From: a virus | Lineage: Duplodnaviria; Caudoviricetes | DNA: 64,000 bases | Virus record (IMG/VR): IMGVR_UViG_3300014204_000124 | Span: 65,635 to 129,634 of that record | Strand: one strand, 5' to 3' | In this document: in pieces, positions 34,441-40,709 of the stretch | Numbering within the stretch: position 1 is the stretch's first letter | Layout of the letters: each line of letters opens with the position of its first letter | Made by a program: the position numbers and the translations under genes | The notes under the pieces: model-generated | Told to the model about the DNA's origin: nothing | Seen by the model: the letters and a program-made list of their open reading frames with translations, nothing else | The model's database searches: none

Positions 34441-37203
34441 ATGGGATTCAAGGATGCGATACGGAAGCGAGTCAACGAGTTTCTGAACGCTGAGAGAGAT
34501 ATTCCTTTATCGAAGGAACAACTACGGGACTCGGGCAAAAAGGTGGCTGGGGCTTTTGAGTCTGGCATTACTCCTTCGGAATTAGACGTATGGAATTGGT
34601 ACGAGTCAAGAGTTTCTGTTGAGCGAGATTTGAAATCACGATATTTAGATTACGAGAGTATGGATGATTATCCTGACTTCTGCCTTTCCGGCGATACTCT
34701 CGTCTATACTCTGTGGGGGCCGATTCCTTTCAGGAAACTGGCCGAGGAGTATGCCGATAAGGAAATTCCCATCTTGGCCTATGACCGTGGGAACAGACGC
34801 TTTGTACCCTCGATAGGTATCAAGCCACGGCTTACGGCGAAAGGGGCTAAGGTCGTTCGTGTCGTGTTCGATGACGGGACGGTCCTTGTGGGGACGCCCG
34901 ATCATCCGATTATGATGATGGATGGCAGCTACTTCCCGCTTGGTGATTTGCGAACCGGGATGTCTGTCCAGCCCATGTTTACCAGGATGGGGCGGATGGG
35001 TTATCTTGAGGTGATGCAGCCTCTTCAAGATCAGTCTGGCCGGGCGAAATACCAATGGGAGCTTGTCCACCGAATGGTTGCCGCTGCGATCTATGGTGCC
35101 GACAAGATAGAAGGGATGATCGTTCACCACAAGGATCGTGATAGGTCAAACGCGGACCCGGCAAATCTGGAGGTTATGACGGGGCACGAGCACGCTCGAA
35201 TTCATTTTGAAGCTGGTGATTCAGTAGTGGATTGGACTCCGGCGAGAAGGGCGGCTGTAGGTGAGCGGATGCTGGGCAACAAGCATCGGGCTGGGACAAC
35301 GTCTTCGGACGAGACTAGACTGAAGCAAAGCGTTTCCATGAAGGCATACAAGTCGCAGCATCCGAATCAGAATGAGGAGTGGGTTAGGAAGCGGGCAGAA
35401 GCAACACGGATTGTTCTCTCGGAAGATATTGTGCGGGAAGCGGCAAAAGGGGCTGGTTCTGTGCTTGACGTGGCCACGAGGTTGGAAGTTAGCTGGAGGG
35501 TGGCCAGCCGTCACTTAGAGAGATTCGGGATTGACTTCAAGAAGGAGAGGGACCTTTTCTATGAGGTTCGGGACAAAGGGGAAGAAGCGAAGAAGGAGAG
35601 TGCTCGGAAGGCGAGCAAGAGATCTCGCTGGGGCCATGCAGCTAATCATAAGGTAATGAAGGTCGAAGATTGGGGCACTGAGGATGTTTATGACCTATCC
35701 GTCCCTGGGTTGGAAAACTTTGTTGCCAATGGAGTAGTGGTACACAACTCGGCGGCCCTCGACACATGGGCCGATGAAAGCACACAGCCAGATCAAATGA
35801 AGAAGGTTTCTGTATGGGTTGAGTCTCCAACGCACACCATCGCTGAGAGAGGCAACGAAATTCTTGATTTGATAGGTATAGAAAATGATATGTGGGGTCT
35901 TTCCAGGGGGTTGGCCAAATATGGCGACCAATATGGTGAGTTATTGTTGAATGAGAACGGCGTGGTTGGTATCCAGTATCTGGACACACCTACGGTGAGG
36001 GTAGTTGCCAAGTCTGGGAAGGAAATTGGGTATGTTCAAGATCCAGAGGGCAAATTTGATATTACTCCTACGTTGTTTGAGAAGGTTTTGGCAGAGGGCA
36101 ATGGGATAGCGGGCGAGATGGCTTTGTTCCACCCTTGGGAGGTTGTGCATTGGAAGTTGATGCTCCGGCGGCTGAGGGGGCTTTACGGCCACGGGATTGG
36201 GGAGTCGGTGCGTTGGCTGCACAAGCGAGTGATAATGCTTGAAGACAGCGCCGTGCTATTCAAGATTACTCGCGCACCTGTGCGGACTGCTTACTATGTG
36301 GCGTGTGGGGAGATTCCCCCTGAGAAGCGGTTGGCATACGTGAAGCAGGTGAAGAGCCAGTTTCGGAAGAAGCAGTTCAAGTCGCCGGACGGGAAGATCA
36401 ATTTTGCGTATAATCCAATGAACCCGCATGAGGAATACTGGTTGCCGTCTGGAGGTGGGGCGGGGGATACTCGTATCGAATCTATAGGTGGTTCAGATTT
36501 CCAGTCTATGGAACTACTTGATTATATGCAGGCGAAATACCACATGGCGTTGAAGGTTCCACGAACGCATATGGGGTTTGCCGGGGAACCAGCCCAAGCT
36601 ATGCTAGCGCAGATTGACGTGAAGTTTGCTAGGGCTGTTTTGCGGTTGCAGGCGGCGATATGCAGGGGTGTAGACCGGACTTTGGAAGTGGATCTAATGG
36701 CAAGAAACATTGATCCCAGCACGGTCAAATATGCTGCTCGGATGACGATGCCGTCTTCGATATTTGAGTTAGCGAGGATGGAAGTCTGGAACGCCAGGGC
36801 AGACCTGATGTCGAGGATAGGTGAGCAGATGCCGCTGGTTTGGATGTTGATGAACATTGTGGGGTTATCGGAGGATGAGGCGGCGCAAGTGATTGCGTTG
36901 AAGCAGTACGAGAAGCGGATGCTGGCTCTCTGGGATGCCAGGAATATGGCAGATGCCGAGAAAATCCAGACCGGTGCGGGCGGCGATTCTAGCGGCGGAG
37001 GGTATGAATCTGTGCAGCCCTTCTTGCCCCAAAAGGTGTTGCACGAGGAGCGGGCCTTGGAAGCGAGGTTCAGGCGGTCTGACGAGAAGCGGGTTTTGGA
37101 GAAGGTAAATTCTTTGTTGGTGAGGGACGTTGGAATGGCTCATAGGTTGCAGGAATTACGCTCGATGATTCGAGAGATTCATCGGCAAACGGTATTGAAG
37201 TGA
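34441..37203 (+). CDS. portal protein (T4 gp20-like), contains an intein
   Basis: YESMDDYPD, AALD..ADE, KYGD, LEDS....ITRAP.R, EEYWLP, KVP. Confidence 0.92.
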   Translation: MGFKDAIRKRVNEFLNAERDIPLSKEQLRDSGKKVAGAFESGITPSELDVWNWYESRVSVERDLKSRYLDYESMDDYPDFCLSGDTLVYTLWGPIPFRKLAEEYADKEIPILAYDRGNRRFVPSIGIKPRLTAKGAKVVRVVFDDGTVLVGTPDHPIMMMDGSYFPLGDLRTGMSVQPMFTRMGRMGYLEVMQPLQDQSGRAKYQWELVHRMVAAAIYGADKIEGMIVHHKDRDRSNADPANLEVMTGHEHARIHFEAGDSVVDWTPARRAAVGERMLGNKHRAGTTSSDETRLKQSVSMKAYKSQHPNQNEEWVRKRAEATRIVLSEDIVREAAKGAGSVLDVATRLEVSWRVASRHLERFGIDFKKERDLFYEVRDKGEEAKKESARKASKRSRWGHAANHKVMKVEDWGTEDVYDLSVPGLENFVANGVVVHNSAALDTWADESTQPDQMKKVSVWVESPTHTIAERGNEILDLIGIENDMWGLSRGLAKYGDQYGELLLNENGVVGIQYLDTPTVRVVAKSGKEIGYVQDPEGKFDITPTLFEKVLAEGNGIAGEMALFHPWEVVHWKLMLRRLRGLYGHGIGESVRWLHKRVIMLEDSAVLFKITRAPVRTAYYVACGEIPPEKRLAYVKQVKSQFRKKQFKSPDGKINFAYNPMNPHEEYWLPSGGGAGDTRIESIGGSDFQSMELLDYMQAKYHMALKVPRTHMGFAGEPAQAMLAQIDVKFARAVLRLQAAICRGVDRTLEVDLMARNIDPSTVKYAARMTMPSSIFELARMEVWNARADLMSRIGEQMPLVWMLMNIVGLSEDEAAQVIALKQYEKRMLALWDARNMADAEKIQTGAGGDSSGGGYESVQPFLPQKVLHEERALEARFRRSDEKRVLEKVNSLLVRDVGMAHRLQELRSMIREIHRQTVLK
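34681..35748 (+). mobile_element. intein (356 aa) with HNH homing endonuclease
   Basis: CLSGDT...GTPDHP...VHRMVA..VHHKDRDRSN..N.E..H...VYDL..NFVANGVVVHN followed by Ser. Confidence 0.95.
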
Positions 37204-37265: not shown

Positions 37266-38099
37266 ATGTTTCCTGAGACGATTAAAAAACTTAGATCTGG
37301 CAGTCTTGAACTGATTCGGGAGAGATTCTGTGCTAGGTGGCCCGGCGAGACGGTGATTGCCACATTCGCTAGGCATGTTATTTCAGAGCAAAACGGGACT
37401 TTTTTTCAGCGTAGTCTGAACGAGGATTTCGAATTTGGTGAAGCCGATGTGTTGCTCCGGTCTGGGGAGTCGGTGTTAGAGACGAGAGCTTTGGCTGAAC
37501 GTATAGTGGACGCAGTTGTGTCCGGCAGAGATGTCACCGAAGACATGGATGCTTTTTTAGACAGAGTATCGTCAGGGCATGACTTCTCAGTGAAGGCGGT
37601 GAAGGAGTCGGTTATCGGCGTGTTGACTACCACCAATGAGTGGCGTTCTTTTTACCGTAGATATGAGCCTCGTATTCGGAAAATTCTGCATGGCGAGTTG
37701 GGAGTTTTGGAGGATCGCAGGTTGAAGCCCAAGTATCGGAAGATCCGTTTAGGGAATTTCAACGAAGAGGATAAAGCTGCTGCTATACCTTCTGTTCGGA
37801 TGTCATTCGGCGAGGTTTTGGCTCGTCTCGCTGGCATTCGTGCTGAATTAGCGGAGATGGTTATACCGGATGTTTCGAGAGATGCCATTGAACAGGATTT
37901 GTTCCAGATGCGGGGGATGAAGCGGATTTTGGAAGACGAGTTGGCGCAGATGTCTGACCATATATCGGGGTTAGATATCAATGTTGACAATGTTTCGGAA
38001 GCGGCGGCTACCTATGATTTGGTTGCCGACGAGGTAGGCAGATATGAAGTAATGGCGCTGTTTCTCAGGCGTGCCACGAATGTCGCTGCGGCGGCGTAG
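37266..38099 (+). CDS. hypothetical head-module protein
   Basis: GGAGG RBS; lies between portal and protease. Confidence 0.7.
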   Translation: MFPETIKKLRSGSLELIRERFCARWPGETVIATFARHVISEQNGTFFQRSLNEDFEFGEADVLLRSGESVLETRALAERIVDAVVSGRDVTEDMDAFLDRVSSGHDFSVKAVKESVIGVLTTTNEWRSFYRRYEPRIRKILHGELGVLEDRRLKPKYRKIRLGNFNEEDKAAAIPSVRMSFGEVLARLAGIRAELAEMVIPDVSRDAIEQDLFQMRGMKRILEDELAQMSDHISGLDINVDNVSEAAATYDLVADEVGRYEVMALFLRRATNVAAAA

Positions 38100-38114
38100 C
38101 ATGGAGGTGTTGGT

Positions 38115-38825
38115 ATGAACGGTAAAAGGAACCCTGACCTGCTGAGCAAGGAACTAAGGGAAGTTGGGATTTTAACAGAGCAGGTTGACCAGTTGATGGG
38201 TGAACGGGCAGAAGGGGAGCAAGTCGACGAGGGCTTAAAGGTCATTCGTAAAAAGGTCGGCGGCGCAGCCCGTCGGCTTAAGCTGAAAGCGAAGAAGTAT
38301 TACCGTAAATTCAAGGGCAAGCTCAAGCGAGCGGCCCGCAAGTGGAAGAAGAGTTCTGCTGGCAAGCGCTTCGCTCGTTTGGTAAAGCGGTACAAAACCC
38401 GTGTAGGCAAGATACTGGCGAAGGGTGGGAGCAAGAAGCGTATTAGTTATAGTTCCACCAATTCGCCTGCTTCCAATTTGGCGGAGCGTATCCAAGCAGA
38501 GGCTCGTGGTTTGTTCGAATCTGAGGTTAGCGACGAACGCGGAATCATGCTTGAGAATTACACCACCGGGGCGGAACTTGCGCTGGGGTTTACGCTTAGG
38601 TACGCGGGGATGGGGAAGGACGATGTTGCAGAGCAGATGATGAATGTAGCCGAGGGTTTGTTGGATTTAGCCGACAACGTTGAGGCAGGGACGGTTGAGA
38701 ATACTGAGGCGCTATCTATTTCGGAGTTGGGAGCGTTTAGGGGTTTGCTGGCCTGTGCTGAGGACTATTTTCGCAACTATGCGGACGAGGAAGGCAGTTC
38801 CTTTCTCGAAGACGACGACGACTAG
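38115..38825 (+). CDS. prohead core-like protein with a highly basic segment
   Basis: LTE/VDE motifs then a Lys/Arg-rich block (KAKKYYRKFKGKLKRAARKWKK); position analogous to T4 gp67/gp68. Confidence 0.65.
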   Translation: MNGKRNPDLLSKELREVGILTEQVDQLMGERAEGEQVDEGLKVIRKKVGGAARRLKLKAKKYYRKFKGKLKRAARKWKKSSAGKRFARLVKRYKTRVGKILAKGGSKKRISYSSTNSPASNLAERIQAEARGLFESEVSDERGIMLENYTTGAELALGFTLRYAGMGKDDVAEQMMNVAEGLLDLADNVEAGTVENTEALSISELGAFRGLLACAEDYFRNYADEEGSSFLEDDDD

Positions 38826-39027
38826 TTCGGACTGGTTTCCCGCCCTATTTTTTCAGGGCGGGTTATCCGAACGGGCCAGGAAGCGGCGGACGGCGTATAG
38901 AAGTGGCAGGCTGGAGTTGATTGGTTGGAAACCGACGAGTTTTAAGCGCCGGAAGAGTCCTGAAAAGGACAGTTCGGTTTTGGCCCGGACGCCTTTTCGG
39001 AGCCAACATAGGTGGAGGCGGTATTAA
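38826..39027 (+). other. structured intergenic element overlapping a start-less basic ORF
   Basis: Several nested stems; +1-frame ORF ends in TAATG overlapping the protease start. Confidence 0.55.
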
Positions 39028-40709
39028 TGAAAGTGGACCCCAAAGCGCAGTTGCTTATAGAGACATATGAGTTATCGGGATATCAGCTTGACGAGTCGGC
39101 GAAGAGTGAGGGGCGTGTTGTTCTGAAGGGGGTGTTTGCGAAGGCCGACGTTCCTACCAAGAACAAGCGCATTTACGGCAGGTCCTCGTGGGTCGAGAAC
39201 ATCGCCCGCATGAAGCCTGACATGAAGCGCAAGGCGGTCAAGGGGGAAGTGGACCATCCGGCAGACGGGAAAACTCGGTTGTCGAGGGTGAGTCACTTCC
39301 TCACGGATCTGGAATTGGAGAGCGACGGCACTATTGTAGGCACAATGGAGTTGCTGCCTGATAAGCCAGGGTCACCTGCGTCACAGTTACATTCTATCAT
39401 TCAGGCTGGTGGTGTCATTGGTGTTTCTAGCCGCGGTTTCGGCCTGACTGAGACTGACAAGCACGGTAATACTGTGATCAAGGAAGGCACGTTCCGTTTG
39501 GACACGTTTGACGCGGTGGAAGATCCTGCGGTGAAGTCCGCATATCCCACAGTGTACTATGAGGATGTGTGCCGTAGTTGCGGTCTGGAAGAGGAAGAAT
39601 TACAGGCGAAGTTAGAAGAGGCCACGAAGATGGTGGCCCAACTGACCGAGCGTGTTAGTGGAAGCGATATTGAGCCTATAGTTCGGCAGCGTCTTGCTGC
39701 GCAGCTTTCCGATGCTTTCAACAGAAAGCGAGCGGAGTTGGAAGAGAGTATTAGAAGCGACCTATTGACGGACCCAAAGACGGGGCTTGCTAGGAAAATT
39801 ATAGAGCAGATTGCGATGCTTGTGGCTCCCTTCGGGTCTGTGCATGTTGGGGAATCGGAAGATCTGAAGGTAGAGTTGGCGGATCTTCGTGCGAAGCTAT
39901 CAGAAGCTACCAATATGGTGCATGGGTTGACTATGCGGTTGCGGTTGGAAGAGGCTCTTCGTGGTGAGCAGAGCACGGAGCTTTTCGAGCAATTGATTGG
40001 GGACGTGGGCCAGTATGATTTAGACTCACTCAATGCGAGGATCGTTGCTATCAGGAGGGAGTTAGAGAAATCAGGTCTGCGCAAGCCGGTGGTCGAGGCG
40101 CAAGAGTATGAGGAGGCGGCCAGCAAGGCGTCGGATATGATAGAGGCATTGAGGGGGGAATTGGAAGAGCAACGTGAGCTATTGCAGGAGAGCATTCGTG
40201 CAAATCGTGAACTTGCTGCTGAGCGAGACGGAGCTCTTGAAGAGGCGTCAAAGCCTGGGGAAAGGGAAAGCGAGCTGAGAACTGAAAACGAGCGGTTGCG
40301 GGCGGAAGGTGTGCGGTTGAAAAAAGAGTTGAAGGGGGTTACTGAGTTGGCGGAGCGCTCTGAGTTTGAGGTCTCGGTCGAGCGATTAATAGCGCATCGT
40401 GCGGATAGAGAGGCGATTAGAGAGACGGTGCTAAAGTGTGGAGATATTCAAGAAGCGAAAAACATGCTTCGGCGCATGTCGGATAGTGGTGGCGCTACCC
40501 GGAGTGTGCGGGAGCAGGTTTTGAATAGGGTAAGCCGTGGCAGGGAAGTGTTCGATGACAGTGCGTTGGGATCTGAGAATGTTGGTTCGGGAGTGGTATC
40601 GGTCGGCCCGGCACCTAATTCGCCATCGGGGTCTTCTGCGTTGGCAGAGGAACTGCTGGAGGTAGGGATTCTGGTGGAAACCGCTCGTGGCACCAATGGA
40701 GGCGGCTAG
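39027..40709 (+). CDS. prohead protease (T4 gp21-like) fused to a coiled-coil scaffold
   Basis: NKRIY, GEVDHP, VSH, GVSSRGFG, FDAVEDPA; long acidic coiled coil. Confidence 0.9.
   Translation: MKVDPKAQLLIETYELSGYQLDESAKSEGRVVLKGVFAKADVPTKNKRIYGRSSWVENIARMKPDMKRKAVKGEVDHPADGKTRLSRVSHFLTDLELESDGTIVGTMELLPDKPGSPASQLHSIIQAGGVIGVSSRGFGLTETDKHGNTVIKEGTFRLDTFDAVEDPAVKSAYPTVYYEDVCRSCGLEEEELQAKLEEATKMVAQLTERVSGSDIEPIVRQRLAAQLSDAFNRKRAELEESIRSDLLTDPKTGLARKIIEQIAMLVAPFGSVHVGESEDLKVELADLRAKLSEATNMVHGLTMRLRLEEALRGEQSTELFEQLIGDVGQYDLDSLNARIVAIRRELEKSGLRKPVVEAQEYEEAASKASDMIEALRGELEEQRELLQESIRANRELAAERDGALEEASKPGERESELRTENERLRAEGVRLKKELKGVTELAERSEFEVSVERLIAHRADREAIRETVLKCGDIQEAKNMLRRMSDSGGATRSVREQVLNRVSRGREVFDDSALGSENVGSGVVSVGPAPNSPSGSSALAEELLEVGILVETARGTNGGG

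Follow-up and report, generated by a model that had tools for sequence, protein, structure and literature searches.

How do ribosomes reach a strongly basic peptide that lies between two head-assembly genes of a tailed phage and has no start codon in the gap separating them? The question is raised by the viral record IMGVR_UViG_3300014204_000124 (IMG/VR; Caudoviricetes), of which we analysed positions 65,635 to 129,634, a 64,000-nt stretch called the window below; it makes up the latter half of one contig of 129,634 bp. On the + strand of the window, the gap is bounded upstream by ORF236 (38115-38825; 236 aa), a head-core/internal protein gene whose frame we take as frame 0 and which ends in GAC-TAG at 38820-38825, and downstream by the gene of a T4-type prohead protease (39027-40709). 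An original prediction had suggested that this gap is a structured RNA hiding a start-less basic ORF that is reached by a ribosomal hop or a +1 shift. Comparison with relatives leads us to favour forward (+1-direction) recoding from ORF236, to which we assign a probability of roughly 0.52-0.55: a minority of the ribosomes translating ORF236 would move forward by one base, or by 3n+1 bases, into the peptide frame. This reading is favoured because the clade of the window has no start codon led by a Shine-Dalgarno (SD) sequence, because one member of the clade is start-less, and because the product of an in-frame ATG at 38779 lacks a targeting-type leader.

A conserved basic peptide ahead of the protease gene

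The frame of the peptide, +1 relative to ORF236, is open from 38671 across the whole interval to a TAA stop at 39025-39027, and this stop forms part of a TAATG that overlaps the protease ATG at 39027; both the open frame and the overlap had been predicted, and both were confirmed in the sequence and the ORF listing. A Leu-Ser-Glu (L-S-E) motif at 38863-38871 directly precedes the mature peptide of 51 aa (RARKRRTAYRSGRLELIGW…RTPFRSQHRWRRY; 38872-39024, + strand), which had rightly been described as very basic (18 K+R, 3 D+E, pI 12.0) and for which AlphaFold models an N-terminal helix only, with low confidence (pLDDT 65). Between 38826 and the conserved peptide, the +1 frame contains no ATG, GTG or TTG. 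The description of the ORF as start-less thus holds inside the gap, but it had overlooked the ATG at 38779, which lies in the same frame within ORF236.

The nearest relatives of the protease are P0002 (71% identical) and P0004-P0006. The same interval is carried by a relative in IMG/VR (L001/L002) whose protease is 48% identical, and codon-by-codon comparison showed that Leu-Ser-Glu, followed by RKRRTAYRSGRLELIG…RTP.RS.HRWRRY-stop, is kept there despite many synonymous changes. Scans with the peptide recovered 34 loci in IMG/VR, 21 in JGI metagenomes and two in metagenome-assembled genomes (MAGs), with 41 distinct sequences among them. All of these loci are placed directly upstream of a homologous Peptidase_S77 prohead protease gene, and in most of them the peptide stop overlaps or abuts the protease start. 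A profile hidden Markov model (HMM) search of 1.84 billion representative proteins returned 49 clusters, nearly all of them ORFs of 49-100 residues that end in the peptide. Between the window and six relatives, synonymous sites were saturated (synonymous divergence, pS, 0.76-0.95), with a nonsynonymous divergence (pN) of 0.22-0.40 and a pN/pS of 0.28-0.51, and sequence variation in the interval showed a 3-nt periodicity. Judged by this conservation, the interval codes for protein: it forms the 3′ end of a coding unit and specifies a linker ending in Leu-Ser-Glu and then the 51-residue peptide of pI 12.

The ribosome-binding site (RBS) of the protease gene, GGTGGAGG (39011-39018, + strand), falls within the conserved R-W-R codons of the peptide, and part of the C-terminal conservation may therefore act at the nucleotide level. 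In other loci, the protease RBS was likewise seen inside the C-terminal R-W-R/K codons at homologous places. The peptide family has no relative in Pfam, PHROG, PDB or the Atlas, and 50,697 GenBank phage records gave no DNA match and no peptide match, with only distant matches to the protease. A word-index protein search with the 82-aa ORF that begins at the ATG at 38779 (38779-38781, + strand; P0021) returned only the query itself, with no called homologue of similar length in the protein database, and no copy of the interval was found elsewhere in the 129.6-kb genome.

Routes into the peptide frame among relatives

About 24 distinct loci place the peptide in the −1 frame of the gene before it. 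Where this gene can be matched by similarity, it proves to be homologous to ORF236 (L019, L022/L023). An in-frame slippery heptamer of the form X_XXY_YYZ ends within 6 nt of the stop of this gene in 15 of the 25 scored loci, against 0.16 expected from heptamer density elsewhere in the same upstream genes, and it is often the sole heptamer of its gene. The sequence is G_GGA_AAC, typically arranged as G_GGA_AAC-NNN-stop, in 13 of 25 scored loci, while G_GGA_AAA, G_GGA_AAG, A_AAA_AAA and A_AAC_CCT occur in other −1 loci. The peptide frame of twelve loci is devoid of ATG, GTG and TTG, and the heptamer itself is where the −1 frame becomes open in L019, L030 and L055. Most −1 loci also have a stem-loop starting 6-7 nt after the heptamer. 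The stem sequences are unrelated between subgroups, but within one subgroup a compensatory change was detected (CCGCTTATC/GGTAAGCGG covaries with CCGCTTGC/GCAAGCGG), and in 16 of 24 loci the downstream 55-nt segment is within the most stable 10% of its own locus. As shown by this comparison, a fraction of the ribosomes in these relatives appears to reach the peptide by a −1 slip before the core-gene stop, aided by the stem-loop; this is the sole or the simplest way into the peptide frame there. The original idea that recoding appends a basic peptide, to be freed at L-S-E, is thus strongly upheld at the level of the family, though not for the particular sites that had been proposed in the window.

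Two loci carry the peptide in the −1 frame with neither a start codon nor a canonical heptamer (L016:2990-3010 and L005:2905-2930); they have just single-tRNA slip sites, G_GGG or C_CCU, which may be non-canonical −1 sites. A different arrangement is found in loci such as L017, L034/35, L050/54, L042 and others, in which an SD sequence and an ATG or GTG directly follow the upstream stop. The N-terminal leaders of these own-start peptides, and those of the database ORFs, resemble capsid-targeting leaders and end in hydrophobic-x-Glu (e.g., MSDELQQLVTEARQVLE before AWRKRR and MQALLESLDSLLE before APRKRR).

In the window, no slippery heptamer precedes the ORF236 stop and the peptide is in the +1 frame, so the −1 cassette is absent. 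A tree built from protease N-terminal domains groups the window with L001 and L046 (support 100/99) in a clade nested among the −1 loci, and the peptide is in the +1 frame in all three members (3/3), in agreement with the shift direction originally proposed. Immediately after the ORF236 stop, a hairpin begins (TTCGGA/TCCGAA enclosing CCCGCCCT/AGGGCGGG; 38826-38871, + strand) that is markedly more stable than shuffled sequences (z = −5.4), ranks among the most stable 1% of 55-nt segments in a 9-kb region, and holds the Ser-Glu codons of the L-S-E site in its 3′ arm. L001 and L046 also have hairpins at the homologous position. The hairpin of the window is as strong as the stems that follow the heptamer in the relatives and occupies a homologous place, but it has no slip site 5-9 nt upstream.

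Candidate forward-recoding sites and rival explanations

No member of the +1 clade has an SD sequence 4-8 nt before a start, whereas in the window GGAGG is found at this distance in front of each of the five neighbouring head genes; given that no start in the clade is preceded by an RBS, some of the ribosomes on ORF236 would have to move forward. L046 has no ATG, GTG or TTG in the peptide frame at all, and its upstream gene ends in ACC_UUU_UGA (L046:1300-1320), followed by a stem. In its own right, this locus is a clean candidate for a phage in which +1 frameshifting occurs naturally at a UUU_UGA shifty stop.

Among the candidate sites in the window, GAG-GAC-UAU-UUU-CGC-AAC (38760-38777, + strand) combines an SD-like GAGGA with UAU, UUU_C (UUU at 38769-38771) and CGC. 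The window and L001 agree at every position of this 18-nt block. No longer exact match exists between them in the weakly conserved ORF277 and ORF236, and the block shows no synonymous difference (0/6) against 5/6 in the adjacent conserved residues. The genome holds 11 SD-preceded UUU_C sites, and only this block precedes a long +1 ORF; a search with the block for further members of the +1 clade returned L001 and L002 only. In the phage's own usage, both CGC, the least used of the Arg codons (10% of them), and CUC (7% of Leu codons) are among the rarest. The GC skew is strongly positive across the whole window (+0.15 to +0.37); the + strand is accordingly rich in G and poor in C, and few codons end in C. 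A slip of tRNA-Phe from UUU to UUC at GAGGAC-UAU-UUU-CGC, with the rare CGC in the A site, is a tentative proposal for the forward step.

Two other sites had been pointed out in the original prediction. UCC_UUU_C (38799-38805, + strand), with CUC as the A-site codon, is present and, in an alignment by eye, may match the terminal ACC_UUU_U(GA) of L046 in position; a slip there is doubtful, and its presence does not establish it as a shift site. Both UUU_C sites (38769-38772 and 38802-38805) are in frame 0 and inside the open +1 frame, and re-pairing at +1 is possible at each. In GAC-TAG-TTCG-GAC (38820-38832, + strand), the proposed take-off codon, stop and landing codon are indeed there and the landing GAC (38830-38832) is in the +1 frame, which establishes the codons rather than the hop. 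Here peptidyl-tRNA-Asp would take off at GAC-UAG and come down at the base of the hairpin, on the GAC that lies 10 nt further on. We regard such a hop as unlikely, somewhat less so than a slip at UCC-UUU-C; it would account for the presence of a hairpin right after the stop in each of the three clade members. L001 reads GAC-TGA-T at the corresponding place (GAU at +4) and has a further in-frame GAC 31 nt downstream; in L046, no codons are matched in this way. By conservation within the clade, UAU-UUU-CGC is better supported than either the GAC hop or UCC-UUU-C.

Other decoding routes were rejected. A −1 or −2 slip on the GAC repeats would require a re-pairing that tRNA-Asp cannot make there, and both a double −1 shift via U_UUU_UUC in the hairpin loop and readthrough combined with a shift would require two rare events. 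Reassignment of a stop codon was also rejected: TGA, TAG and TAA each terminate long ORFs, and the code is therefore standard. No tRNA genes were found in the phage.

Several observations weigh against forward recoding. The case for it comes entirely from sequence comparison, and within the +1 clade this comparison comprises only three sequences. No +1 site is common to all three members: L046 lacks UAU-UUU-CGC together with its whole 18-nt block, and L001 lacks UCC-UUU-C. The UAU-UUU-CGC site is 50 nt upstream of the hairpin and has no stop codon in the A site, and its GAGGA stands 4 nt before the UUU at 38769, compared with 3 nt in prfB. As for the hop, GAC cannot re-pair at +1, and the matched GAC codons could be a chance occurrence in an Asp-rich tail. 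Further, the packaging of the peptide and its binding to DNA are inferred from position, charge and cleavage motif only.

The ATG at 38779 also counts against forward recoding, as it offers a possible, if less probable, route: an overlapping small gene starting 47 nt inside ORF236 would yield an 82-aa precursor (MRTRK…LSE, then RARKRR…) to be processed at L-S-E and packaged without fusion to ORF236. The ATG is in frame in the window and recurs at the homologous Tyr codon in L001, GAGGA lies upstream of it within the conserved block, and many relatives express the peptide from a start of their own, so that fusion to the upstream protein is not obligatory in the family. However, the SD-like sequence stands 14 nt (window) or 17 nt (L001) from the ATG, compared with 4-8 nt in the neighbouring genes and a genome-wide mode of 4-7 nt, and L046 has no start codon although it belongs to the same clade. 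The 31-residue leader resembles neither the M..IDRL..LVE leaders of this phage nor the leaders of the stand-alone homologues, and an ATG arising by chance from TAT followed by G is expected in roughly one in five cases (codon-usage estimate). An assembly indel that displaced a −1, frame-0 or fused peptide, or a gene no longer expressed in this lineage, is improbable. The window does come from one metagenome-derived contig of 129.6 kb, and the disappearance of the ancestral G_GGA_AAC site may be a sign of inactivation; yet the +1 relation is common to three independently assembled clade genomes, purifying selection is evident within the clade (pN/pS 0.29 and 0.38 at pS 0.76-0.84), and the ORF remains undisrupted, with its end still overlapping the protease start.

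Least probable is that the open frame is incidental and that the interval acts as a structured noncoding RNA (ncRNA) or a cis-regulatory leader of the protease, as had been offered in the form of a head-assembly ncRNA or protease regulator. The very stable hairpin at 38826-38871 fits such a role, and so does the folding of the whole 221-nt interval, which is marginally above that of shuffles on both strands (z = −1.97 on +, −2.42 on −). Nevertheless, conservation tracks codons and amino acids, and the remaining elements of the nested structure once proposed did not withstand comparison: the stems CGGGCCA/TGGCCCG, CCGGA/TTCGG and GTCCT/AGGAC and the pseudoknot GGCGT/ACGCC show no covariation in ten homologous sequences, in which 48% of cells were paired against 44.6% in shuffles, and slid controls were equally good. 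With permissive E-values, Rfam models matched 38000-40000 only at the level of chance (snoRNA-like matches), the promoter and terminator scan found nothing above chance and no convincing terminator, and the genome contains no repeat copy. Setting stem covariation against codon conservation, the check that had been suggested, thus came out in favour of coding; the regulatory role is rejected, and of the predicted folds the first hairpin stands.

Head-module context and comparison with known systems

The T4 prohead protease prefers I/L-x-E cleavage sites. In keeping with a substrate of a T4-type protease, 36 of the 41 loci have [LIVMF]-x-E ahead of the peptide, and in the window L-S-E at 38863-38871 adjoins the Peptidase_S77 gene. 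In T4, the gp21 protease degrades core proteins and removes the N-terminal leaders of internal proteins (PMC9958956). By analogy, the peptide would enter the prohead core fused to ORF236 (or, elsewhere, by means of its own leader), the protease encoded directly downstream would cut after Glu and free it, and the polycationic product would stay with the DNA as an internal peptide.

ORF236 itself has an N-terminal L-x-E leader (…GILTE before Q), a very basic central block and an acidic C-terminus (…FLEDDDD before the stop). It matches no Pfam or PHROG family, and a word-index protein search found nothing except the query; homologues hold the same position in L001 (42% identity), L046, L019 and L022/L023. 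Across loci, the upstream proteins were seen to have a common N-terminal L.E(D/E)L..(I/V)GL motif, acidic stretches, a basic central block and an acidic helical tail. They belong to no Pfam or PHROG family and form an uncharacterised head-core protein family.

Further upstream in the window are ORF277 (37266-38099), which has no known family, and a gp20-like portal gene (34441-37203; 920 aa) interrupted by an intein with an HNH endonuclease. The intein was recognised by Intein_splicing and HNH_3 matches within residues 133-436, and the portal of L001 has only 566 aa. The protease, identified by Pfam and PHROG, has a long C-terminal extension beyond the protease domain that is read as scaffold-like, and its gene is followed by that of a gp23-like major capsid protein (Pfam/PHROG). 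Elsewhere in the genome, at least 11 ORFs, each behind an SD sequence, open with M..(I/L)(D/E/N)R(L/F)..L(V/L)E and then A/S/G/E; they include ORFs at positions 392 and 915 of the window, and the others are in the first half of the contig. These ORFs constitute a bank of putative head-cargo proteins with a common cleavable leader.

We found no report in the literature of a −1 cassette before a T4-type protease or of its replacement by a +1 arrangement, and the family-wide −1 cassette, replaced by +1 here, appears to be undescribed. The peptide gene is missed by gene callers although it is set in the core of the head-assembly module, and its family occurs in a widespread environmental group of T4-like phages. 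It offers a new class of target for phage recoding, namely a prohead-core protein whose frameshift product bears a cleavable polycationic peptide, and the natural series of −1, +1-direction and separately initiated forms would be useful for studying how recoding signals evolve and what stoichiometry is required. Should the peptide stay with the DNA, the phage head would contain a protamine-like component supplied through translational recoding. A bolder and unlikely possibility is that one lineage has come to use three decoding routes (a −1 slip, a start of the peptide's own, and a forward step at or close to the stop), the window using a short, hairpin-driven bypass at GAC-UAG-UUCG-GAC in which the ancestral −1 stimulator now serves the hop; if so, nature would here have turned a frameshift signal into a hop signal along a path that can be followed through evolution.

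Structural proteins of phages are known to be extended by −1 frameshifting, as in gene 10A/10B of T7 and T3, G/GT of lambda and the capsid proteins of Listeria phages A118 and A500 (Atkins et al. 2016, PMC5009743). The relatives of the window resemble these systems in having an X_XXY_YYZ heptamer near the end of a virion gene, a 6-7-nt spacer, a stem-loop and a C-terminal extension made in a minority of products. As with Ig-like extensions, which related phages gain by −1, +1 or no frameshift, the same extension is obtained here in different ways. The known cases concern capsid, tail or chaperone proteins, whereas here a prohead-core/internal protein encoded next to a T4-type protease is extended. 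What is added to it is short, polycationic and preceded by a protease site, and so is probably released; the window itself has no −1 cassette.

Sites of +1 frameshifting include SD-UAU-CUU_UGA of prfB (SD at 3 nt), CCC_UGA of the Listeria phage tsh gene, Yersinia YopN-TyeA and UCC_UUU_CGU of influenza PA-X. The window and L001 resemble prfB in their SD-like element and UAU E-site codon, and PA-X in UUU_C followed by an A-site Arg codon of the CGN type, while the UUU_UGA of L046, followed by a stem, resembles the prfB-type shifty stop. Unlike prfB, the window has no A-site stop, which only L046 possesses, and the SD-like spacing is 4 nt rather than 3 nt. With T4 gene 60 bypassing, the window shares a GAC…GAC match, a stop after the take-off codon and a stable stem-loop at the stop; it differs in that the gap is 7 nt rather than 50 nt and the landing codon is inside the stem, and among its relatives L046 lacks a matched pair and L001 has a geometry of GAC-U-GAU or a 31-nt gap.

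Finally, a parallel may be drawn with the T4 proteins processed by gp21, namely IPI-III, gp67, gp68 and Alt (PMC9958956). Like T4 genes 67 and 68, the gene lies between portal and protease, a hydrophobic-x-Glu site precedes the retained basic part, and the stand-alone homologues have short targeting-like leaders. However, no sequence similarity to any T4 protein is present, the retained product has only 51-71 residues, and, unlike the T4 internal proteins, the peptide would be targeted in most of these phages by frameshift fusion rather than by a leader of its own.

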